From Scenedesmus sp. PABB004 (taxonomy: Eukaryota), in the NCBI GenBank assembly GCA_014905635.1, contig JABVCE010000004.1:1178001-1242000 (forward strand): a stretch of DNA of 64,000 nucleotides. The letters run 5' to 3'. The notes beneath the pieces are model-generated. The model saw nothing but the letters and a program-made list of their open reading frames with translations. It did not search any database and was not told the DNA's origin. Position 1 is the first letter of the stretch, and every line of letters begins with the position of its first letter. The position numbers and the translations under genes are program-made. Below, piece by piece: positions 1 to 25,543 of this stretch.

Positions 1-566
1 CTACGGAGCCAAGGTGCGCAGCCTGAGCTTCAACCTCAAGGACCCCGCCAACCCCGACCTGCGCGCGCGCGTGCTCTCGGGCGCCATCGACCCCGCGCTG
101 CTCGTCGAGCTGAGCCCCGAGGAGCTCGCGAGCGACGGGAAGCGGCGGGAGAATGCAAAGATCCGGCAGGAGGCGGCGGCCGAGGCGGTGCGCGGGCAGC
201 AGCAGCAGGCATCGACCGACATGTTCAAGTGCGGGCGCTGCAAGCAGCGCAAGTGCACCTACTACGTGAGCGGCGCGCGGCGGCGCGCGGCGGCGGCGGC
301 AGGCGCGGGCGGGCGGGCGCCGCGCTGCTGCGGCGCGCCGGCCGCGCGTGAGCCGCCCGGCGCGCGCGCCCGACTGCGGCGCAGCAACTGCAAACGCGCT
401 CCGCGGACGAGCCGATGACCACGTTTGTGACGTGCGTCAACTGCGGCAACAAGTGGAAGTTTTGCGTGAGCGGCCGGGGCGCCGCGCGGCGGGACGGCGC
501 TCGCCGCCGGGCCGCGCGGCGCGGCCTCACCGCCGCCGCGCCTCTGCTGCCGCCCGTGCGCAGTGA
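1..566 (+). CDS. TFIIS: Transcription elongation factor S-II, 3' part (partial; exons 1-265, 385-465, 564-566)
   Basis: Spliced translation ...[16 protein letters not shown]...LSPEELASD...[47 protein letters not shown] contains the TFIIS Zn ribbon with the RSADEP acidic hairpin. GT-AG introns at 266-384 and 466-563. Confidence 0.96.
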
Positions 567-12304: not shown

Positions 12305-14985
12305 ATGGCTGCGGCGGCGGACGACCAGCTGCTGCCCATCGCCATACTCATGTGCGCCCCGCTGCCGCCCGGGCGGCCGGCGGCCCCCGCGCGCCGCGCT
12401 GCGGGCCCTGCGTCGCCTGATCGGCGGAACGGGCGCCCGCGGGGGGCGTGCGGGGCCGGCGGGGCGCGCGGGGGCGGCGCAACAGCACGCGCCGGCCCCT
12501 CACAACCGCCGCGGCCGCCGTGCGCGCAGCGACGAGCTCAAAAACGACGACGCGCTGCGCCGTCTCAACTCCATCCAGCGCCTGGGCACCATCGCGCTCG
12601 CGCTGGGCGAGGAGCGGACGCGGTCGGAGCTGCTGCCCTTCCTCGTCGAGAACAACGACGATGAGGACGAGGTGCTGCTGGCCATGGCGGAGGAGCTCGG
12701 CAAGTTCGTGCCCTACGTCGGCGGCCCGCCGCACGGCCACACGCTGCTGCAGCCGCTCGAGCAGCTCTCCCAAGTCGAGGAGACGGTCGTGCGCGACAAA
12801 GCGGTCGAGTCGCTCTGCAAGGTCGGCGAGCAGCTGCCCACGTCCAGCATAGGGGAGCACTTCATCCCGCTCATCAAGGTGCGCACCCGCGCGCCGCGCC
12901 GCGCCGCTGCCCGACCAGCGGCGGCGGCCGCCGGCGCCACAGCAGCAGCGGCGGCCGCGGCGGCGCACGCCGCGATCGGCCGGCGGCGCCCGACCCCCGC
13001 CCGCCCGCCCGCCCGCCCGCCCACCGCCGCCGCCTACGCAGCGCCTGGCGCAGGGCGAGTGGTTCACGTCGCGCGTGTCGGCGTGCGGGCTGTTTGCGGT
13101 GGCGTACCCCCGCGCCGCGGCGGCGCAGCAGGCGGAGCTGCGCCAGCTCTACGCGCAGCTGTGCCACGACGAGACGCCCATGGTGCGCCGCGCGGCGGCG
13201 CAGAAGCTGGGGCCCTTTGCGGCCGTGCTCGAGCGCGACGCCGTGAGCCGGGAGCTGCTGCCGCTGTTCACGGACCTCACGTCGGACGGTGAGGCGCGCG
13301 CGCGGCGCGGCGGCGGCGGCGAGGCGCGGCGGCGAGCGGCGGCCGCCGGCCCCCCGCAGCGGCGCGCGCCCACGCGCCGCCGCCCGCCGCCGCGCCCGCC
13401 GCGCATCGCCCGCAGACCAGGACTCTGTGCGGCTGCTGGCGGTGGAGAGCTGCGGCGCGTTCGCAGCAGCGCTGAGCAAGGAGGACTGCAGCACCAGCCT
13501 GCTGCCGGTGGTCCAGAAGTTCGCGCAGGTGGGCAGCCGCGCAGGAGCGGGCAGCGGCACGCGGCAGCGGCGCGCGGCAGCTGCATGGTGGCGGCCGCAG
13601 CCGTGGACGCAGCGTGCGAGGCGCACAGCACAGAGGGTGCGCCGCGCCCTGAACGCGCCGCCGCGCCGCGGCGCGCCGCAGGACAAGTCGTGGCGCGTGC
13701 GCTACAACGTCGCGGCGCAGATGGTGCCGCTGTGCGAGGCGCTGGGCCCCGAGCTGACGCGCGCGGAGCTGGTCCCCGCGTACAGCAAGCTGCTGGAGGA
13801 CAGCGAGGCCGAGGTCCGCATCGCCGCCGCGGGCAAGGTCGCGGCGTTCAGCAAGATGCTCACGCCGCCGCTGATCGTGTCGGCGATCGTGCCGCGCGTG
13901 AAGGAGCTCGCAAACGACGCGAGCCAGTTTGTGCGCGCCGCGCTCGCGGGCGTGGTCATGGAGCTCGCGCCGCAGCTGGGCAAGGCGCCCACAATCGAGC
14001 ACCTCGTCCCCGTCTTCCTCAACCTCCTGCGTGACCCCTACCCCGACGTGCGCCTGAACGTCATCTCCAAGCTCGACCAGGCGCGCGGCGACGACGACGC
14101 GCGCCGCGCGGCGGCCACCACGCGCAGCGCCGCACGCGCAGCGCCCGCCCGCGCGCCGCCGCACTGCCCGGCCGCGCAGCGAGAGCGCCGACGCCGTCGC
14201 CTTGTCTGCCCGCCCCCGGCCCGCCGCCCGCGCACCCGTGCAGGTCAACCAGGTCATTGGCATCGAGCTGCTCGCACAGAGCCTGCTGCCGGCGATCGAG
14301 GAGCTCGCGGAGGACAAGCACTGGCGCGTGCGGCTCGCGATCCTGGAGCACATCCCGCTGCTCGCCAACCAGCTCGGCGCCGAGTTCTTCCAGGAGAAGC
14401 TCGGCCCGCAGTGCATGCGCTGGCTGGAGGACCAGGTCGCGTCGATCCGCGAGGCGGCGACCAAGACGCTGCAGAAGATCGCGCAGGTGTGTGCGCGCGC
14501 GTGGCGGGCCGCGCCCTGGCGCGACCGCGCCCGCCTGGCCCGCGCCCGCCCGCCCGCCCCGCGCCCGCGCGCCGCGCGCCGCCGCCCGCCCACGCGCCGC
14601 CGCTGCCGCCGCGCCGCAGGAGTTTGGCCCCGAGTGGGCCAAGGAGCACCTCGTGCCGCAGGTGCTGGGCATGGTGAAGAACCCGCACTACCTCTACCGC
14701 ATGACCGTGCTCGTCGCGATCAGCTCCCTCGCCTCGTACGTGAGCCAGGACGTGTTTGTCGGCACGATGCTGCCCGTGCTCGTCGGCTGCGCGAAGGACC
14801 GCGTGCCGAACGTCAAGTTCAACGTCGCAAAGGTCCTCGAGCGCGTCGCGCCGCTCGTCGACTCGACGGTCGTGTCGGCGACGATCAAGCCCTGCCTCAA
14901 CGAGCTCGCGGAGGACGCCGACGCGGACGTGCAGTTCTATGCGCGCCAGGCGCTCTACGCGTGCGACAACATCCAGATGCAGTGA
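12305..14985 (+). CDS. PP2AA: Protein phosphatase 2A 65-kDa scaffold (A) subunit, HEAT repeats, 7 exons
   Basis: LLPIAILIDELKNDD...[28 protein letters not shown]...[13 protein letters not shown]...[11 protein letters not shown]...[11 protein letters not shown]...[11 protein letters not shown]...[10 protein letters not shown]...[13 protein letters not shown]. Confidence 0.98.
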
Positions 14986-15488: not shown

Positions 15489-16809
15489 ATGCGGCGCCTA
15501 GCACGAGCTGCGCAGCCGCCGCTGCTGCTGCTTCTCGCAGCCGCAGCAGCGGCGGCGGCGGCAGCGCCGGCGGCGGCGCCAGCGACCGGCGCCGGCGGCG
15601 GCGGCGGCGATGGCGCCGCCTGGTCTTACAACTGCACCGACGCGCACATGGCAAACCAGCCCGGCTGCGACGCCACCTGCCGGCACCGCACGGGCAACGC
15701 GCTGCTGGAGCTGTACGCGGGCCTGCTCGGCGCGCCGTCGCGCGAGCCGTGGCGGCACGTGCCGCCCGGCGCGCTCTGCGGCGAGTGCGCCGACGGCAAA
15801 GGCGCGCCGCTCGCGGCGTTCTGCTGCTGGCCGGGCGTCTTCTGCTGCAGCGAGGACGCGCCCGAGGACCAGCACGGCCCCGGCGACTGCACGGTCAGCG
15901 GCGCGCGCGCGGGCGTGCACCACCTCGCGATGCGCGGCTTCAAGCTCGCCGGCCGCCTCGACGACGCGCGCGTGCTGCGCGCGCTGGAGGCGCTCATGGC
16001 CCACGGCCTGCACTCGCTCGACTTTGCCTCCAACGCGATCCGGGGCACCATCCCGCCGCAGCTGGGGCAGCTGAGCGACCTGCGGAGCATCAACCTCAAC
16101 CTCAACCACCTCACGGGGACGGTGAGCCGCGCCCCGCCCCGCAGCCCGCACCCTGCCGTCCGCGCCGCCGCCGGTGCCCCGCCGCCGCCGGGCCAGGGCT
16201 CGTCAACTCGCCGCCCGCCTGCCTGCCCGCCCGCAGCTCCCGGCCGAGCTCAGCGCGCTGGCCAAGCTGCAGCACTTTTACGCGAGCTTCAACAACCTCA
16301 CGGGCGAGCTCAAGGGCAGGTGAGGGGCCCGCACGCGCCTCGCGCGCCGCCGCCGCCGCGCGCGAGCGTAGCCGCGACGGCGACATGCGCGCGCTCCGCT
16401 CCGACGTGCCCCGCCGCGGCGCAGGTTTTGCACCCGCTCCACCGCCCTCTACTCGCTCGTGCTGCGGGCCAACAAGTTCAGCGGCACCGTCGACATGAGC
16501 GCCTGCCTCGGGCTGGGCCTGCTCGACTTCCAGGCAGGGTTTGGGGCGCGCCGAGCGCGCACGAGCAACGGCGCCGGCAGCGGCCGCGCGCGCGCCTCCC
16601 GGCATTGCCGCCCGACATCACCACCCGCCGGCGCCGCCGCAGGACAACCGTTTCACCGGGCGGCTGCCGGTGGGCATCGGCAACCAGGCCCTCGTGAGCC
16701 TGCGCATGACCAACAACCACTTCTCAGGGCCCATCCCCGAGGCGGTGTGGCGCCTGCAGCAGCTCGCCACGCTCGAGGTGCGCGCGAGGGGCGCCCGCCG
16801 CCGCCGCCG

Positions 16810-16846
<37 letters not shown>

Positions 16847-17366
16847 TGCCGCCGCCGCTCACGGCCGCGCGCGGCCGCCGCGTCGCCCGCGCAGCTGTCG
16901 AACAACGACCTCACCGGCACGCTTTCCACCTACGCGGGCTCGGTCAACAACCTGGTCAACATACGGCTCGGCAACAACTCGCTGTCGGGCACCATCCCCG
17001 GCAACATCAGCGCCAACAGCCAGATGCTCGTCCTGGAGCTCTTTGACAACCCAGGCATTCGCGGCACATTCCCAGAGTTCAAGTGAGCGGCGCGGGCGCG
17101 GGCGCAGGGGACGGCACGCGGCGCGCGGGCGGGGCGGGGCGGGGCGCTAGAGGGGGCTTGGGCGGGGGAGCGTGGGCGGGGCGGCGCGCGCCGGCAGCGC
17201 CCGCCGACCGAGCTTCCGTATCGCCGCAGCGGCATGGTCGGCGTGCGGGTGCTCGACCTGCGCAACACCTCACTCAGCGGTGAGCGGCGGCGCGCGCGCC
17301 GCGCGCGTGCGCCGCCCCGGCCCGCGCGCGCCCCGCGCGCCGCTGCGCTCGCCGCCCGGCGCACGC

Positions 17367-17408
<42 letters not shown>

Positions 17409-20400
17409 GGCACCATCCCCGCGGCGTGGGGCCACCTGCCCTACCTTGAGACGGTGGACATCACGAGCACGCGCATGGCCTGCTGCCCCAACCAGAGCGC
17501 CGCCGACGCGCTCGTCGCGGCGCGCGGCGTCGACGCGCTGCTGCCAGAGTTTCTGCAGTTCCACAGCCGCCTCCGCCAGGTCAACACGACCCGGCGCGGC
17601 AAGACCGTGCCGGACCAGCCCGTCAGCATCCTGTGAGCGGGGGAGCGCGCAGCGCGCGCTGCAGGGCAGCCGCACCGCGCCTGGCGGCGCGCGCGCAGCG
17701 GGCAGGGCGCCGCGCGCCGCGCTGCCGACGCCGGCGCCCGCCGGCGCGCGCAGGTGCGGCGACGTCGAGCGGCGGCCGCAGCCGGTGAGCGCCTGGAACA
17801 CGCTGGGCCTGCCGGTCACAAGCGACGCCGTCGAGAACCAGCGGTGGAGCATCGGCCCGCTGTACACTTTTTACACCAATTGCTCCTGCCTGCCGGTGCG
17901 CAGCGCGCGGCGCAGCGCGCTGCGCACCGGCGGCGGCGCCGCCGTGCGCCGACCCCCGCGCGCGCCGCGCGCGCCGCGCAGGGCTTGGACCGCGACGACC
18001 GCAACCGCGTGCCGCTGCCGTTTGCGGAGGCCTGGTGCCGCCCCGGCGGCGGCGGGCCCTGCCTGGGCGCGCAGCTCTTCACGTGCGTCGCGCCGCCGAG
18101 CGGCTCGCTGAGTGCGGCGCAGCGCGCGGCGGTCGCCATCATCGCCGGCGTCTGCCTGCTCGCGCTGCTGGTCGCCGCCAACATGCTGCTCGCCCACGCC
18201 AGCAAGGCGCGGCGGCGGCGGCTTCGCCGCGGGGCGCCCCGCCGGCGTGCCCCGCCCGCGCCAGCTCTGGCGCGGGGGCTGCGCTCACCCCCCCCCCTCC
18301 CCGGGTGCCGCGCAGGTCCGGCGCTTCTACGTCCGCGCCAAGGCGCGCCTCGGCGGCACGCCGCGGCACGGCCGCATGACGCTCGTCTGCACCGACATTG
18401 AAGGCTACTCGGGTGCGCGCCGCGCCGCGCCGCGCCGCGCCGCCGGGCGCACACGCTCCCGCCCGGCCGGCGCAGCCGCCGTGCACGCGGCTGCGCGCGA
18501 GCCCGCCCGTGGCGGGCGCTGTGTCGTGCCTGCGCGCACGCACACGCACGCGGCCGCCGCCGCCGCCCGCCCGGCAGAGATCTTCAAGCGCGCGCCGGAC
18601 GTAATGTTCAAGGCCCTCACCGCGCACAACGCGGTGCTGCGCGGCGCAAAGTACGCCAACGCCGGCTTCGTGCTGGAGCAGGTGCGGCCGCCAGGCCGGT
18701 CGCGCGCGCGGCGCGCGCGCGGCGCCCGGCGCGCGGCGGCCGCCTCACGCCGCGCCGCGCCGCGGCGTGCCGCGCGTGCACCGTGCACCACACCGCGCCG
18801 CCGCGTGCCCTACGCAGGAGGGGGACAGCTACACGCTTGCCTTTTACGACGCCTTTGACGCTGTGGCCTTCTGCCTGCAGGTCCGCACCACACGCTGGCC
18901 CTGCGCTGCGCCGCCGCCACCGCACTCGCTCGCCCTCACACGCCCGTGCGCGCGGCCGCCGCGGCACGCGCCCCGCAGGGGCAGCAGGCGCTCCTGGCGG
19001 TGCGCTGGCCGGAGGGCCTGGACCCGGAGGACCCCAGCGCGCTCGCGTCCGCCGGCTCGCTCGCCAGCCGCAAGCAGAGCAGTGAGTCGCCTCGGCGGCG
19101 GCCGTCTGGCGCGCGCTCGGCCGCCGCGCCGCCGGCCGGCCGACGGGCCGGCGGCCGCGGGGCGCGCGCTGACGCCGGGCCCGCGCCCGTGCTGCGCAGA
19201 ACTGCAGCGGCGCTTCGCGCACATGCTCATGTCCAGCACGCGGCGGACGCGAAACCTGCGCGACCGCCTACGTGAGCGCCGCGCGCGCGGCTACGGCAGG
19301 CCGCGGCGGCGCCGCCGCCGCCGACCGCCGGCGCGCCGTCCGCGCGCCGCGCGCAGCGAGCGCAGCCAGCGCGACGCTGTCCGAGCCGGACGTCCCCTCG
19401 GCGGGCGGCAGCGCGACGATGCCGCGGCCGCTGGCGTTCAGCGGCCTGCGCGCGTCGCCCGCGCCGGGGGCGCTCTTCAAGGGCCTCCGCGTGCGCATGG
19501 GCGTCTGCACCGGCGACGTGCCGAGCGGGACGCCCATCAAGAGCAGCGCGCTGTTCCAGCTCACCAAGGGTGTGCGCCCGCGCCGCGCGCGCCGGCCGCG
19601 CGGCGCGCCGCTCCTCGCCCGCCGCCAATCTTACACGGCCGCCCCGCCGCCCCGCGTGCTTGCGCGCGTGCACGCACGCGCGCAGCGGTGTCTGACTTTG
19701 GCAACGGCGGCCAGGTCATCATCGACCACGCGACCTTTGCGGCCATCAAGGAGCAGCTCACGGTCCTCGGCGCGGTCGGCGCCGGCGGCGTCGACTACTC
19801 CCGCCTCGCCACGCACCGCTCGCTCTGGACGGCGGCCAAGGCGGCGTTCTGCGGCGCGCGGTGCGCGTTCGCGCGCGGGGCCGCCGCGGCGGCGGCCGCG
19901 CGGCCCGCCCCCGTGCGCCCGACGCCGGCGCCGCTGCCGGCGCACACCCACACCCACACCCACAAACACCCCCCCCCCCCCGCCCCCACGCACACACACA
20001 CACACACACGCACGCGCGCAGGCCGGCGGAGGACGCGGAGGAGGCGATCGTGCTCGACATGGGCGCGTATGCCGCGCTGCAGCCGGGCGAGGACGTGAGC
20101 GCCGCGTACGACCCGCCGCCGTCGCCCGGCGCGCCGCGGCCCGCGCCCGACGGCGCGGCGCCGCGCGGCTGGTGGGCCGCGCTGTGCGGCGGCGCGCGCC
20201 GGCGCGGCTCGGCCGACGGCGGCGCGTTGGCGCCGCCTGCCGGCGGGCGGCCCGGCTCGCGCACGTCCGACGCGAGCTCGCCGCTGAGCGGCGCGCCGGA
20301 CGCGCCGGAGCTGGCCTCCGGCGGCAGCGGCCTGGCGCTGCGGCTGCGGCTGAGCAGCGCACTCGCGAGCATCACGTCCTCGGCGTCGCAGCCGCGCTCC

Positions 20401-23400
20401 AGCGACGGCGGCGCCCCGCCCGCCGCGCGCCCGGCCGCGCTGCTCGGGGCGCGCTCCTTCTCTGGCGGCCGCTCGTTCGGGCGGCAGGGCAGCGCGCGCT
20501 CGGGCGGGCGCAGCTGGTCGGCCGTGCGCGTGTACCAGGTGCTGCCGCCGCGCCTCGCGGGCCGCGCGCACGTGTGGCTCAACCGCCTCAACGTCAAAGA
20601 GGAGGATTGGGCCTGCTGGGACGCGCCCTACTTTGAAGCGCCAGGCGCGCCCGCCGCGCGGGGCTGTGCCGGGGTCGCGCCGCGCCGCGCGGGCCGCCCT
20701 CGCCCATGCCCGCGCGGCGCCGCTCACGCCGCGCCGTGCTCCGCCGCGCCGCGCCGCGCCGCGCCGCGCAGGCAGCGACGCGGTGCCGCTCACGACCGGC
20801 GGCGGGTCCGAGCTGGGCCGCGGCGAGCGCGGCTGCGGCTGCTTCGGCGGCGCCTCGGCCGGCAGCGGCGGCGCCTTTGCGGCCACCAGCCCCAACAGCC
20901 CGCCGCTGAGCACCGCCGGCGCCAGCAGCCCGGACGTCTCGTCCGTCGCTCGCGGCTTCAGCGCGCTGCCCTTTGACCGCAGCGGCCTGCAGGCGCTCGC
21001 GCTGGGCCCCGGGCCGCCGCCGCCGCTGCCGCCGGTGACCATGGTCTTTGCCGCGGTGGAAAACCCCGAGCAGCTCGTGCGGCGGCGCCGCGCGTTTGCG
21101 GCCACGATCGCCGCGCTGCTCGGCAAGGCGGTGCGCGACGCGCTGCGGCGCTGCGGCGGCTACCTCTGCCGCGTGCAGGTGCGCCGCGCGGCGGGCTGAG
21201 ACCGCTCGGTCTCAGGGTTGCGCGCAGCGCGCGGCGCGCGCGCGTGCCGCAGCGCTGCGCCCAGCGCTGGCGCCCGGCACTCAGCGGCGCTCGGCGGCGC
21301 TCGGCGGGGCTCGCCCACCGCAGGAGGGTGAGTTGAAGTTCATGCTGGCCTTCTCATCACCCAACGCGGCGCTCGAGTGGTGCCTCGTCGTGCAGGAGGC
21401 CGGTGCGTGCGCGCGCCCGGGGGTCGCGGCGCGGCGCGGAGCGGCGCACCGGGCGCGCGCAGGCGCGGCGCCGCTGACGCGTCCGCCGCGGGGCGGGGCG
21501 CCGCAGCGATGCACCTGCCGTGGCCGTCCGAGAGCGTGCTGCTCTACTCTGGCTGCACGACTGAGCGCGACGACCAGGGGCGCATCGTGCTGCGCGGGCC
21601 GCGACTCAAGATGGGCGTGTGTGAGCCGCGCGCGGCGCCGGCGGCCGCGCCGCGCCGCGCCGCGCCGCGGCTAACGTGGCGCCGCCCGCCCGGCGCGGCG
21701 CGCAGGCGAGGGCGTGCCCCGCAGCATCATGCCCGACCACGAGGCCCGCGCCGACTACCACGGCAGCTCGGTCAACCTCGCCGCGCGCTACATGGACCGC
21801 GGCGCCAAGGGCGGCCAGATCGCGTGCTCCCGCACCCTCGCGGAGCGCGTGCTTGCGCGCTGGGCCGCCGGCGTCGGCGGCGGCGCCGGCTTCAGCGGCG
21901 TCACGGGCAGCTCGGCCGAGGACGCCAGCTTCCACAGCCTGCCCGAGGGGCTCACCGGCCGCGCGCCGAGCAGCAGCAGCAGCGGCGGCGCCGCCGCCGG
22001 CGTCGACCAGGGGCTCGGCGTGCGGACGGCCAGCGACAGCGGCGGCGCCGCGCGGCCGCGCGGCTGGTGGCCGCCCGGGGGGCGGCAGGGCGGCGACCCG
22101 CCGGGCGCGCGCGACGCGCGGAGCAGGCGCGGCAGCCGGGACGGCACGCCGCCCGCCGGGCCGCCGTCGCCGGGCAGCCCTGGCCCGTCGGGCGCCAGCG
22201 ACGACGGCGGCGGCCAGGGGTCGCGGGACGGCCGCGGCCCGCTGCACCTGGACTCGATCCAGAGCGGTCAGGTGCTGAAGCCCGCCGGCAGCCTGGGCGA
22301 CCAGGACTGCCTCGTGGGCTCGCTCGAGCTCGCCGGGCGGGGCGCGGGCGGGCGCGCCGCGCGCGCGTCCGGCGGCCGCCCCTCGCTGCGCGGCGACAGG
22401 GCGTCGCAGCTCTCGGACCGGGGCCCGTCCCACCCCGGCGGCTGCCCCTCGCGCTGCCTCATGCGCGATGTGCCGCGCGCGCCGGTCCAAGTGGAGCTCC
22501 ACCGCCTGGGCCTCTTCTCATTCAAGGGTGCGCACACGCCGCACCCGCACCCGTGCCTGCCGCCGCCGCCGCACCCGCCGCCGCCTGCCGGCGCCCGGCG
22601 TGGGCGCGCCGCGCGCGCCGCCGCCGACCGCCGCGCCCCGCCGACCCCCCGCCGCCGGCGCCGCGTCCGCGGCGCGGCGCGCGCGCGCAGGCGGGCCGCC
22701 GCAGCAGGAGATGGTGGAGGTGGTGCTGTCGCACCTCGCCGGCCGGGCCGCGTTCATGGCCGAGGGCGTCGCCGCCACGCGCAAGGGCCAGTGCCTCCAG
22801 GCGCTCTCGGGCCGCCTCGGCGAGCCGGTCACGGTGGAGCTGCCCACGCTTGCGGCCGAGTACCGCGCAGCGCTGCCGGAGCACGCGCTCGCGCCGCCGC
22901 GCCGCGCGCTCAGCCGCTCGCGCACGGCCGTCGAGCGCGCCGGCGACGGGCTGGCGCCGGGCGCCGCCGGCGGCGCGCGCGCGGCGACGCCCGAGGCGCG
23001 CGCCGCGGCGGCGGCCTGGGCGGGCTGGGCGCCCGGCGGTGGCGGCGGCGGCGCGCGGCGCGGCGCGGGCTCGTCGCCGGGCGCGGGCGGGGCCGGGCAC
23101 CCGCTGGCGGGGCTGCGAGTGATGAGTGACATCACCTCCAGCTCCTCACGCACCACCCTGGGGGGCTGGCCCGGCGGCGGGCCGGGGCACGCGAGCCTCG
23201 CGGCGCTGCGCGAGGTCAGCGCGGCGAGCGAGGGCGCGGCGCCCGACCACCTCGGCTCGCCCCGCGCGCCGGCCGACGGCGGGCGGGCGAGGGGCCACGT
23301 CACCATCACCCTGCCAGCGGGCGACGCCGACGGCGACGCCGGCGGCGACGGCGGCGGCGACGTGGTCGGCCCGGCCTGCGTCGCGTCGCCGGCGAGCGGC

Positions 23401-23586
23401 AGCGGCGGCGGCGGGCTGCCCCGCCACGACAGCTTCCGCTCTGTGGGCTCGGTCGAGGCGGCGGACGAGGAGGCGGGCGTCGGCGGCGCCCGCAGCGCCA
23501 AGTCCGGCTCCAGCGCGGCCGCCGCGGAGCTCGCGGCGCGCCAGGCGCTGCTCCCAGACGCGCCGCGGGGCGGCGGCGGCGCATGA
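15489..23586 (+). CDS. Receptor-type nucleotide cyclase: signal peptide, LRR ectodomain, one TM helix, two class III adenylate/guanylate cyclase domains (about 22 exons)
   Basis: Plant-type LRRs (LDFASNAIRGTIPPQLGQLSDLRSINLNLNHLTGTLP, NNHFSGPIPEAVWRLQQL, NNSLSGTIP). TM helix AVAIIAGVCLLALLVAANMLL. Cyclase 1: TLVCTDIEGYS...QEGDSYTLAF...GLRVRMGVCTG...GGQVII. Cyclase 2: GPRLKMGVCEG...DYHGSSVNLAARYMD...GGQI. The intron phases I checked are consistent with one reading frame. Confidence 0.85.
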
Positions 23587-23897: not shown

Positions 23898-25543
23898 TCA
23901 CACGGCGTTGCTGGCGGCGTAGGTCTGCAGCAGCCGCGTGTTGAGGCACGAGTCCAGCGCCGCGCGCCGCTCCTCGGCCGTCAACCGCGGCAGCAGCCAG
24001 CCCAGCTTGCTGCGCGCCGGCGCCGGCGGCGGCGGGGGTGGGGGTCAGCCGCGGCGCGTGCGCCAGCGCGCGCGCCGCGGCGCGCCGGCGCCCCCTCCCC
24101 GCCCGCCCCAGCGGCCCCGCCCGGGCGCCCCCCCCCCCCCTTGAACCAACGCCCCTGCCGGCCCACCGCTTGCCAAAGACCTCCTCGAAGTTGCGCCGGC
24201 CGCCCTTGTTGTAGGGCCAGGGGTGGGGCCGCTCCTTCTCATACATCTCGATGGTCGTGCAGTTGGCGGCGACCATGTTGGCGTGCATCACCAGGAAGCC
24301 GCACAGGGAGACGGCAAACGCGGCGTTGACGATGACGCCGATGAACGCGACGGCGGAGCTGCGGCCCCGCGGCGGCGCGCGGCCAGCCAGGCGGTCGGCC
24401 GGCGCGGTGTGTGTACGGCGCGCGGGTGCGCCGGCCACGCCCCGCGCCGCGCTGCCGCCGGCGCCGCCCGCGCGCGCGCGCGCGCGCACCCCGCCGACGG
24501 CGCGGCGCCGGCGGCGCCCGCGCCGAAGAAGGCCAGCATCGGGCGCACGAGCGCGGCGATGGCGACGGCGCTGCCGGCAAAGGTGAAGGCGAGGAACTGG
24601 AGGAAGAACTTGTAGTTGAGCAGGCCCACGCAGTTGACGACCCAAATGCAGTAGTGGTCCTGCGTGGCGGCGCCGCGCGGCCGCGGCGGGGGTCAAGGAG
24701 GGGGTCAAGGACCGCGGGGCAGGGCAAGCGAGGCACCGCGCGGCGCGGCGCGGGCGCGCACCATCTTGAGCACGCAGCGCCCCGTCACGCTGCAGTGGTG
24801 CGCGCGCTGGGGCTTCCAGGCCTTGCAGTGCTTGCAGAAGCGCGGGCGCCGCGGGTCGCGGCGGTCGATGTAGTAGTCGGCGTACGTCATCAGCTCCTGC
24901 TCACGCGCCGCGATCTGCGGCACGGCCGCAAGAGGGGGGGGGGGCGTCGGGCGCCGCCAGTTGCGGCGCGCTGCCGGCGCGCCGCGCGTGCTGCATTTCC
25001 GCTGCAGGCGCAGCCGTCTGCGGCGGCGCGCGCGTCGCGCGTCGCACCGCGTCGTCGGGGAAGGGGTGCCAGCCCGGCGGCACGCGCCCCGGGTCGGTGA
25101 GCACCGTGGCGAGGTAGCACCAGGTGATCATGCCAATCTGGCGCGGCCGGCGGCGCCGCGGCGGCGGCGGCAGCGGGGTGAGCAGCCGGCGCGGCGCCCG
25201 AGCACGCGGCCAGGCCGCGCCCGCGCGCCCGCGCGCGCACCAGCGCGGAGAAGAGCAGGACCAGGAGGCTCGCGCCGAGAGCGCGCGCGGGCGGGCCGGC
25301 GAGCATCGCGGGGCCGTACGTCGCGGGCACGACGGCGTACCAGGTGAATCCGACGATGCCGAGCACCAGCAGCACCATGACGTGGCCCAGGAGCTTCAAA
25401 AACTTGCAGAACACAAAGACGTTGAGGTACGTGAGGTACCGCCACGCGCCGCCGCTGCCGCCCGACGGCGGCGCGGGCACGGGCGGCAGCGCGCCCGCGC
25501 CGGCGCCGCCGACGAGCGGCGCGCTGCCCCCGGTGCTGCCCAT
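23898..25543 (-). CDS. DHHC-family protein S-acyltransferase, DHYC variant (6 exons)
   Basis: [53 protein letters not shown], TTIE motif, YNKGGRRNFEEVFG, four TM segments. Confidence 0.95.

Follow-up and report, generated by a model that had tools for sequence, protein, structure and literature searches.

A chlorophyte gene predicted to join a leucine-rich repeat receptor ectodomain to a tandem cyclase with divided catalytic residues

Gene structure

The window analysed here is a stretch of 64,000 nucleotides (nt) of Scenedesmus sp. PABB004 (GenBank assembly GCA_014905635.1, contig JABVCE010000004.1, positions 1,178,001 to 1,242,000, forward strand). All coordinates count from its first letter. 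A gene between 15489 and 23586 on the plus strand is the subject of this study. It is a single gene that probably encodes a type I membrane receptor with a leucine-rich repeat (LRR) ectodomain, one transmembrane (TM) helix and two cyclase-homology domains that would form one composite active site, with cyclic AMP (cAMP) as the likelier product (Table 1).

The G+C content of the window is 74-82% throughout. Because stops are rare at such a composition, all six frames are open and lists of open reading frames (ORFs) are uninformative. The exon model was therefore based on a plot of G+C at the third codon position (GC3) and on a listing of the frame-compatible GT/GC-AG pairs at each junction. On the plus strand from approximately 15.5 to 23.6 kb, a single frame at a time reached a GC3 of 0.9-1.0, and the frame switched every 50-800 nt. 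Multi-exon eukaryotic genes show this pattern. The spliced model has 22 exons and 5577 nt and encodes 1858 amino acids (aa) without an internal stop. The GC3, GC1 and GC2 of the spliced coding sequence were 0.952, 0.727 and 0.612, respectively. Past an upstream stop, the frame opens with its first ATG at 15489, and the last exon closes with the stop codon at 23584-23586; these are exactly the gene limits given in the initial annotation of this DNA.

The argument for one gene was built from sequence comparison and composition. The exon with the TM helix ends 109 nt before the first exon of the cyclase part, and GC3 of the coding type persists without a break from 15.5 to 23.6 kb, running at 0.9-1.0 to 23580 and then falling. 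The G+C content dips at the actual ends of the gene, near 15.3 and 23.7 kb, but not at the junction of the TM and cyclase parts. In blastp, the spliced protein was collinear with its relative P0050 (residues 136-698, E 8.8e-65; residues 1038-1348, E 6.3e-50) and with GAX74576.1 (P0046) of Chlamydomonas eustigma (residues 112-888, E 1.9e-58; residues 1169-1579, E 3.1e-50). In both relatives, a single high-scoring segment pair (HSP) spans the LRRs and the TM helix and continues into domain 1. Three relatives compared with the window by tblastn gave 7-10 collinear plus-strand HSPs, which fell inside the receptor gene only and ended 1-3 codons from the modelled exon ends; the summed E values for the domain-2 exons were 1.7e-27 to 3.8e-30. 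Exon 10 encodes the segment right after the TM helix, for which the family consensus reads RKRxxGxPxxG. Because the alignment with full-length database proteins is collinear, the architecture is read as a single chain. To judge from these comparisons, the LRRs, the TM helix and both cyclase domains are parts of one gene, as the initial annotation had held.

Two adjacent genes, one for the LRR-TM part and one for the cyclase part, could have been joined wrongly, and we consider this very improbable. It draws on intron 9 (18207-18315), which separates the TM exon from the first exon of the cyclase part. This intron has no usable GT donor. The model uses a weak and unusual GC donor (AAG/GCGCGG), a frameshift near a C10 run is the alternative, and the spliced form is approximately 6 residues shorter than the relatives at this point. 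The joining of exons was also derived from sequence alone. Against two genes stand the short distance without a G+C drop like that of a gene end, the HSPs that cross from the LRRs into domain 1, the place of the post-TM segment in exon 10, and relatives that carry all parts in uninterrupted ORFs or in a transcriptome-derived sequence.

Table 1. Exons, protein features and catalytic positions of the receptor gene, with the evidence for each feature or its count among 37 relatives
Feature	Protein residues	Window position	Strand	Basis or count
Whole coding span		15489..23586	+	GC3 plot, junction enumeration, open product, splice sites, tblastn HSP ends
Exons 1-6		15489-16121; 16237-16319; 16425-16533; 16643-16777; 16895-17082; 17230-17279	+
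Exons 7-12		17410-17632; 17754-17895; 17982-18206; 18316-18412; 18578-18681; 18818-18880	+
Exons 13-17		18979-19081; 19200-19271; 19357-19569; 19686-19860; 20022-20665	+
Exons 18-22 (with stop)		20772-21178; 21324-21402; 21507-21620; 21706-22527; 22691-23586	+
Putative signal peptide	1-31	15489..15581	+	hydrophobic aa 11-31, Kyte-Doolittle maximum 2.15
Cys-rich N-terminal cap, 10 Cys	45-140	15621..15908	+	Cys positions
Plant-type LRRs, about 11, exons 1-7	~145-433	15921..17510	+	repeat matches, Pfam, PDB
Cys-containing extracellular juxtamembrane region, 8 Cys	~424-560	17480..18098	+	conserved in family consensus
Single TM helix	564-595	18108..18203	+	Kyte-Doolittle maximum 2.64; aligns with TM of relatives
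Cyclase-homology domain 1, two long low-complexity inserts	617-~1062	18376..20592	+	collinear blastp, site counts, fold of P0175
Cyclase-homology domain 2, insert of ~200 aa	1175-~1590	21035..22779	+	homology search, tblastn, site counts
Low-complexity C-terminal tail and stop	~1591-1858	22780..23586	+	GC3
First metal Asp, domain 1	D623 (TDIEG)	18394-18396		Asp 34/37
First metal Asp, domain 2	A1181 (FAAVEN)	21053-21055		Asp 0/37
Second metal Asp, domain 1	D666 (EGD)	18824-18826		Asp 34/37
Second metal Asp, domain 2	E1225 (EGE)	21330-21332		Asp 15, Glu 9, other 13
Transition-state Asn, domain 1	F809	19554-19556		Asn 0/37
Transition-state Asn, domain 2	N1310 (NLAAR)	21774-21776		34/37
Transition-state Arg, domain 1	K813	19566-19568		Lys 34, Arg 3
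Transition-state Arg, domain 2	R1314	21786-21788		37/37
Purine Asp, domain 1	P802			Asp 10/37, not conserved
Purine Asp, domain 2	D1303 (DYHG)	21753-21755		33/37
FKG Lys, domain 1	no Lys-Gly at matching strand
FKG Lys, domain 2	K1560	22524-22526		33/37

Ectodomain and membrane helix

The ectodomain is of the plant LRR receptor type, with tandem repeats between a signal peptide and one TM helix. The Kyte-Doolittle mean over 19 residues exceeds 1.8 in two segments only, aa 11-31 and aa 564-595. Together with the 10 and 8 Cys of the cap and the juxtamembrane region, this bears out the signal peptide, the two Cys-rich regions and the single TM helix of the initial annotation. Eight repeats match LxxLxLxxNxLxGx strictly (aa 174-340, spacing 22-25 residues), and looser or irregular repeats on either side bring the number to approximately 11. 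The plant type of the repeats was thus upheld, but their number was raised from the 9-10 counted before.

Database comparisons gave the same picture. Pfam LRR_1 scored 30.6 bits (cut-off 20.6) on the ORF 16499-17083. Exon 1 had 78 matches in the PDB at E <= 0.01; the best 60 were all plant LRR proteins, with GSO1 at the top (1.8e-26). The best PDB match of the relative P0066 was a plant LRR receptor-kinase ectodomain (1.7e-86). A homology search with exon 1 returned generic LRR proteins only, at 14-32% coverage. For structure, the compact relative P0175 was modelled with AlphaFold2 on a 37-sequence family alignment; the model had a mean predicted local distance difference test score (pLDDT) of 74, with cores above 90, and a predicted template modelling score (pTM) of 0.61. 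The LRR part of this model matched plant receptors at Z ~18 and a root-mean-square deviation (rmsd) of 1.7 Å, and a helix at residues 217-241 matched the TM helix.

The cap differs from that of plant receptors in that LRRNT_2 (PF08263) was not detected by Pfam on the exon-1 ORF; it is present in two distant relatives, P0196 and P0199. Pfam found no kinase domain on 21 window ORFs or in 54 family proteins, in agreement with the earlier view that cyclase domains stand where a kinase would normally be.

The family consensus of the juxtamembrane module includes LPxFLxF, DPxYY and GCxC. Residues ~120-210 of P0175, which correspond to this module, are predicted to form beta strands, and its fold was not identified from the predicted structure. 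The low-complexity C-terminal tail is read as disordered and has no family match, and a short motif just past domain 2 is kept in the family consensus.

Cyclase domains and division of catalytic residues

Both domains are predicted to have the class III cyclase fold, as modelled in P0175. Domain 1 of the model matched the Trypanosoma brucei adenylate cyclase GRESAG4.3 (1fx4) with Z 21.6 and rmsd 2.9 Å over 211 of 231 residues at 26% identity. Domain 2 matched bacterial class III cyclases, with Z 17.8 for 3r5g and Z 17.6 and rmsd 1.9 Å for 5d0g. GRESAG4.3 was also the first PDB hit of the relative P0063 in phmmer (E 2.6e-5), and in that alignment its N-terminal half fell on domain 1 and its C-terminal half on domain 2. 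The two domains are paralogous (hhalign probability 99.2%, E 2e-19) and have a motif in common after the third helix, FCLQ/WCL..Q..L....WP. In the window protein itself, the cyclase assignment rests on homology to the relatives (E 1e-50 to 1e-65). A single 66-aa exon of domain 2 had no cyclase match in the PDB. The ORF 18112-18855, which consists of two exons and a translated intron, gave no matches in a homology search and was probably swamped by low-complexity words.

An alignment with GRESAG4 was used to locate the catalytic positions, and these were counted over 37 relatives. The roles of these residues (metal-binding Asp, transition-state Asn and Arg, purine pair) are those we take to be established in the class III cyclase literature. 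All motifs quoted in the initial annotation are present in the spliced protein, and FQLTK/A spans intron 15. Domain 1 keeps both metal-binding Asp and has lost the transition-state Asn and Arg; domain 2 has lost both Asp and keeps Asn and Arg (Table 1). The two Asp, the Asn and the Arg of a composite site are therefore available across the two domains of this protein. The division of labour that had been proposed from this gene was confirmed and recurs in the 37 relatives. By these counts, the complementary pattern is a conserved family trait and not an accident of one gene.

Substrate choice

In class III cyclases, the purine is selected by Lys and Asp for ATP and by Glu and Cys/Ser for GTP. 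The initial annotation had placed the Arg of YLCR and the Asp of DYHG at these two positions in domain 2. The Asp was found as described. The Arg, R1220 (21170-21172), is one residue out of register: in a straight alignment it stands one residue before the canonical purine-Lys position. A basic residue occurs at this preceding position in 36 of the 37 relatives (Arg 32, Lys 4). The canonical position itself is variable, with V1221 in this gene and Glu in 18/37 relatives. Relative to domain 1, the hairpin of domain 2 is longer by one residue on either side of the G-D/E turn, so the Arg may occupy the place of the Lys in space.

Because the canonical purine-Lys position is variable, we go no further than to hold ATP for a likelier substrate than GTP, as far as residues can tell. 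That the product is cGMP, or that the enzyme is promiscuous, seems rather unlikely to us. Glu at the purine-Lys position is a guanylyl-cyclase residue, and its presence in about half of the relatives, with Val and not Lys here, speaks for cGMP. The database label 'guanylate cyclase domain-containing' points the same way, though it simply reflects the Pfam name. On the other side, Asp at the second specificity position is typical of adenylyl cyclases, where guanylyl cyclases have Cys/Ser/Thr, and it is found in 33/37 relatives and in this gene (D1303). The basic residue one position earlier perhaps takes the place of the Lys, and the closest solved relatives are adenylyl cyclases.

An algal family

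A HMMER search with the largest domain-2 exon returned 141 proteins, the long ones of which carry LRRs and cyclase domains. A second search, started from one of them, returned 83. Of 220 proteins, the 45 with the best scores include 24 in which the covered positions number 150 or more of 266 in the LRRs, 140 or more of 173 in domain 1 and 140 or more of 170 in domain 2. All three parts are covered in Volvox africanus (Vafri_16318), Gonium pectorale (GPECTOR_32g423), C. eustigma (members GAX74576.1 and GAX72947.1) and Tetradesmus obliquus (OEZ86_006000). Relatives from Monoraphidium minutum and others have partial coverage only. One of the 24, P0174, carries an MMETSP identifier, which we take to denote a transcriptome project. 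P0066 (1560 aa on a contig of 5723 nt) and P0175 (1095 aa on a contig of 4840 nt), which also belong to the 24, are single uninterrupted ORFs.

The motifs VVTDIEGYS, EQEGDS, GYLCRxQEGxLKYM and GRADYxGxSVNxAAR run through the family, and the window protein fits them. It has the same order of parts, aligns collinearly and carries the same complementary residues. It differs in the lengths of inserts and tail and in the number of LRRs, and also in domain 2, where Val occupies the canonical Lys position and Glu the second acidic site. On this comparison, the gene is a member of a chlorophyte LRR-TM-tandem-cyclase family spread across the Chlorophyceae.

In C. eustigma, the gene models g2025, g2027 and g2029 (P0046, P0173 and P0069) lie on one contig of 1,024,824 nt, and g6173, g6175 and g6176 (P0041, P0183 and P0178) on one contig of 515,999 nt. 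Such clustered paralogues suggest tandem expansion like that of receptor families. The Raphidocelis subcapitata protein P0185 is annotated as 'inactive leucine-rich repeat receptor kinase-like', and Pfam found LRRs only and no kinase in it. Since this protein shows no kinase and was retrieved by way of its cyclase region, it seems to have been misannotated.

Proposed mechanism and alternatives

In the proposed mechanism, domain 1 or domain 2 would be inactive alone or as a homodimer. Domain 1 would give the two metal-binding Asp. Domain 2 would give the transition-state Asn and Arg, the purine Asp, the Lys that binds phosphate and the conserved Arg/Lys beside the canonical Lys position. Head-to-tail pairing would complete one active site and leave the other degenerate, as in C1/C2 of animal adenylyl cyclases. 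The product would more likely be cAMP than cGMP, and the output would be set by whatever the LRR ectodomain binds. Enzyme activity, substrate, pairing within or between chains and ligand control are what we infer from the residues and the architecture.

The weak junction at intron 9 and the variable purine-Lys position described above weigh against the reading of a composite cyclase in one receptor gene, as do the following points. Pfam Guanylate_cyc (PF00211) matched none of the 21 raw stop-to-stop ORFs of the window, which gave only weak LRR matches; we attribute the missing cyclase match to the shortness of the exons. In 25 relatives, Pfam found LRR families in all and Guanylate_cyc at E <= 1e-3 in 19, with 17 above the gathering score. 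Each cyclase domain is also interrupted by long low-complexity inserts, and full-text literature searches found no assay or activity of a family member.

The last two points would also fit cyclase domains that are catalytically dead, in a protein that serves as a receptor-like scaffold or pseudo-enzyme. Each domain is individually degenerate, and the Pfam domain scores of the relatives are low (20-58 bits). We nevertheless consider a dead enzyme quite unlikely. The retained residues are the exact complementary set for one site and are kept in 33-37 of 37 relatives across genera, and such a pattern is not expected to persist in a dead domain. The high GC3 and the open frame also fit a functional gene.

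The packing of the two domains is a further point against the composite cyclase within one chain. The initial annotation had suggested looking for an intramolecular dimer in an AlphaFold model, and the single-chain model of P0175 did not contain a C1/C2 unit like that of AC5 or AC9. Its rmsd was 16.1 Å over 327 residues for AC5 (Z 16.3) and 15.6 Å over 314 residues for AC9 (Z 16.3), and the Z of the whole model against these enzymes was no higher than that of one domain alone. Foldseek gave template modelling scores of 0.23-0.28 for P0175 against two-domain cyclases, and the Foldseek and VIA-align alignments of the whole model to AC9, AC5 and soluble adenylyl cyclase had rmsd of 15-21 Å.

This result would suit a composite site formed in trans, in which domain 1 of one chain pairs with domain 2 of another and ligand-driven dimerisation of the ectodomains activates the enzyme. 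Signalling through dimerisation is known from plant LRR receptors and from the receptor cyclases of trypanosomes, and this also counts for pairing in trans. On the other hand, the length and flexibility of the interdomain linker (aa ~1062-1175) would permit pairing within one chain. An alignment of 37 sequences is shallow and often leaves packing undetermined, and the pTM was only 0.61. We regard pairing between chains as possible, but our expectation of it is low.

Comparison with known systems

The closest solved catalytic domain to the family is that of a trypanosome receptor-type adenylate cyclase (Z 21.6, P0175 domain 1). GRESAG4.1 and GRESAG4.3 (1fx2 and 1fx4) have the same type I layout, in which one TM helix links an extracellular sensor to a class III cyclase inside the cell. 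The ectodomain of the trypanosome enzymes resembles periplasmic binding proteins, and their only catalytic domain acts as an obligate homodimer. In contrast, the window gene has a plant-type LRR ectodomain and two non-equivalent catalytic domains.

Animal membrane adenylyl cyclases (AC5, 8sl4; AC9, 9u3r) resemble the algal pair on paper, and the C1/C2-like division is known here from sequence. The animal enzymes have two six-helix membrane bundles. With one TM helix and an LRR ectodomain, the window gene is not a member of that group. The algal domains are paralogues of each other and have their own motif, and the C1/C2-like asymmetry probably arose independently of animals.

Plant LRR receptor kinases (FLS2, GSO1, BRI1, PEPR1 and PSKR1) have the same repeat type, a signal peptide and a single TM helix. 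The window gene differs in having neither a kinase nor LRRNT_2, and its output would be a canonical class III cyclase pair. This pair also differs from the short 'cryptic' guanylyl-cyclase centre that has been proposed in plant kinase domains.

Fungal Cyr1 enzymes are cytosolic; their LRRs bind Ras and are accompanied by a PP2C domain and a single cyclase domain. LRRs and a class III cyclase in one polypeptide are common to both groups. Membership in the Cyr1 family was rejected: PP2C was not found in the window ORFs or the 54 family proteins, the LRRs lie outside the cell, and the cyclase domains number two. In the ESM Atlas, the nearest clusters were Cyr1-like fungal proteins with a weak score (0.76), and a chytrid protein (P0210) was matched at E 2e-8. 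Soanes & Talbot 2010 (PMC2939053) describe LRR and PF00211 in one gene as fungi-only among 101 eukaryotes, chlorophytes included. The algal family contradicts this statement.

Full-text literature searches, supplements aside, found no characterised chlorophyte LRR-tandem-cyclase, which agrees with the initial annotation, to which no characterised cyclase of this architecture was known. The architecture itself is less new than had been thought: proteins of the family are already deposited in public databases as 'hypothetical' or 'guanylate cyclase domain-containing', and the window gene is one more member. RNI-like domains presumably belong to the LRR superfamily. Of the 13 partner domains that Gehring & Turek 2017 (PMC5632652) give for Chlamydomonas cyclases with reference to Meier et al. 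2007, one is 'RNI-like'. These authors call the cyclases behind algal gamete signalling "elusive". For gametic cilia, a ciliary proteome paper (PMC9561859) names a channel-cyclase, CYA18, and CYG38, not an LRR-cyclase.

Possible biological role

Receptor-type cyclases with other ectodomains are known in trypanosomes and as animal receptor guanylyl cyclases. The algal family combines three features that are known separately, namely a receptor-type cyclase, C1/C2 asymmetry and a plant-type LRR ectodomain. This suggests that green algae may sense their surroundings via LRR receptors that feed straight into cyclic-nucleotide signalling. As a tentative hypothesis that we think could well be wrong, chlorophytes, which are largely without LRR receptor kinases, would wire LRR ectodomains to cAMP synthesis; the asymmetry would have arisen independently from a trypanosome-like domain, and the tandem clusters would be diversifying receptors.

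If the protein is a cAMP receptor, a ligand would join or re-align two non-equivalent cyclase domains, within or between chains. The family could then be a receptor repertoire for mating, kin or microbe sensing, and would offer candidates for the unidentified cyclases behind cAMP signalling in algal gametes. If the enzymes are active, they would be an independent and tractable example of an asymmetric cyclase pair evolving from a homodimer. They would also give insight into the roles of LRR ectodomains before or beside the kinase fusion in the plant lineage, and provide concrete candidates for the cyclases behind cAMP-dependent processes in algae generally.

Neighbouring genes and splicing details

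The upstream neighbour is a gene for a PP2A scaffold (A) subunit (13247-14982, plus strand), identified by Pfam PPP2R1A-like_HEAT (2.2e-30) and HEAT repeats. Its frame ends at ~14985, approximately 500 nt before the ATG of the receptor gene. The downstream neighbour is a DHHC palmitoyltransferase gene (24291-24692, minus strand, probably extending to ~26700; Pfam DHHC 7.5e-11), which converges on the 3' end of the receptor gene. Both neighbours are unrelated to the receptor, which also speaks for 15489-23586 as one separate gene. A scan of the 64 kb for the TGTAA polyadenylation signal found 1 site on the plus strand and 5 on the minus strand, none of them at gene ends, and was uninformative.

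The 21 introns are 85-165 nt each. Every one of the 21 acceptors is CAG. GT donors, for the most part GTGAGC or GTGCGC, occur in 19 introns and GC donors in 2. The least secure points of the model are intron 9, the acceptors of exons 13 and 15, and intron 17. Acceptors at 18985 or 18988 (exon 13), 19366 (exon 15) and 18265 (exon 10) may be alternatives on sequence grounds. The acceptor at 21327, the second of a NAGNAG pair, was rejected; the family consensus CRxQEGxLKY fits the acceptor at 21324.

The introns are made up largely of simple GC-rich repeats, which coincide with the intron calls; examples are (CCG)28 for intron 4, CACACC for intron 16 and (CGCGC)25, which extends over intron 17. 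Intron 4 (16778-16894) is 117 nt long, in frame, stop-free and mostly (CCG)28. By sequence it could be either spliced out or retained, and retention would put a poly-Arg stretch inside an LRR. The G+C content of the introns (0.878) is higher than that of the exons (0.764), a composition unusual for a eukaryote.

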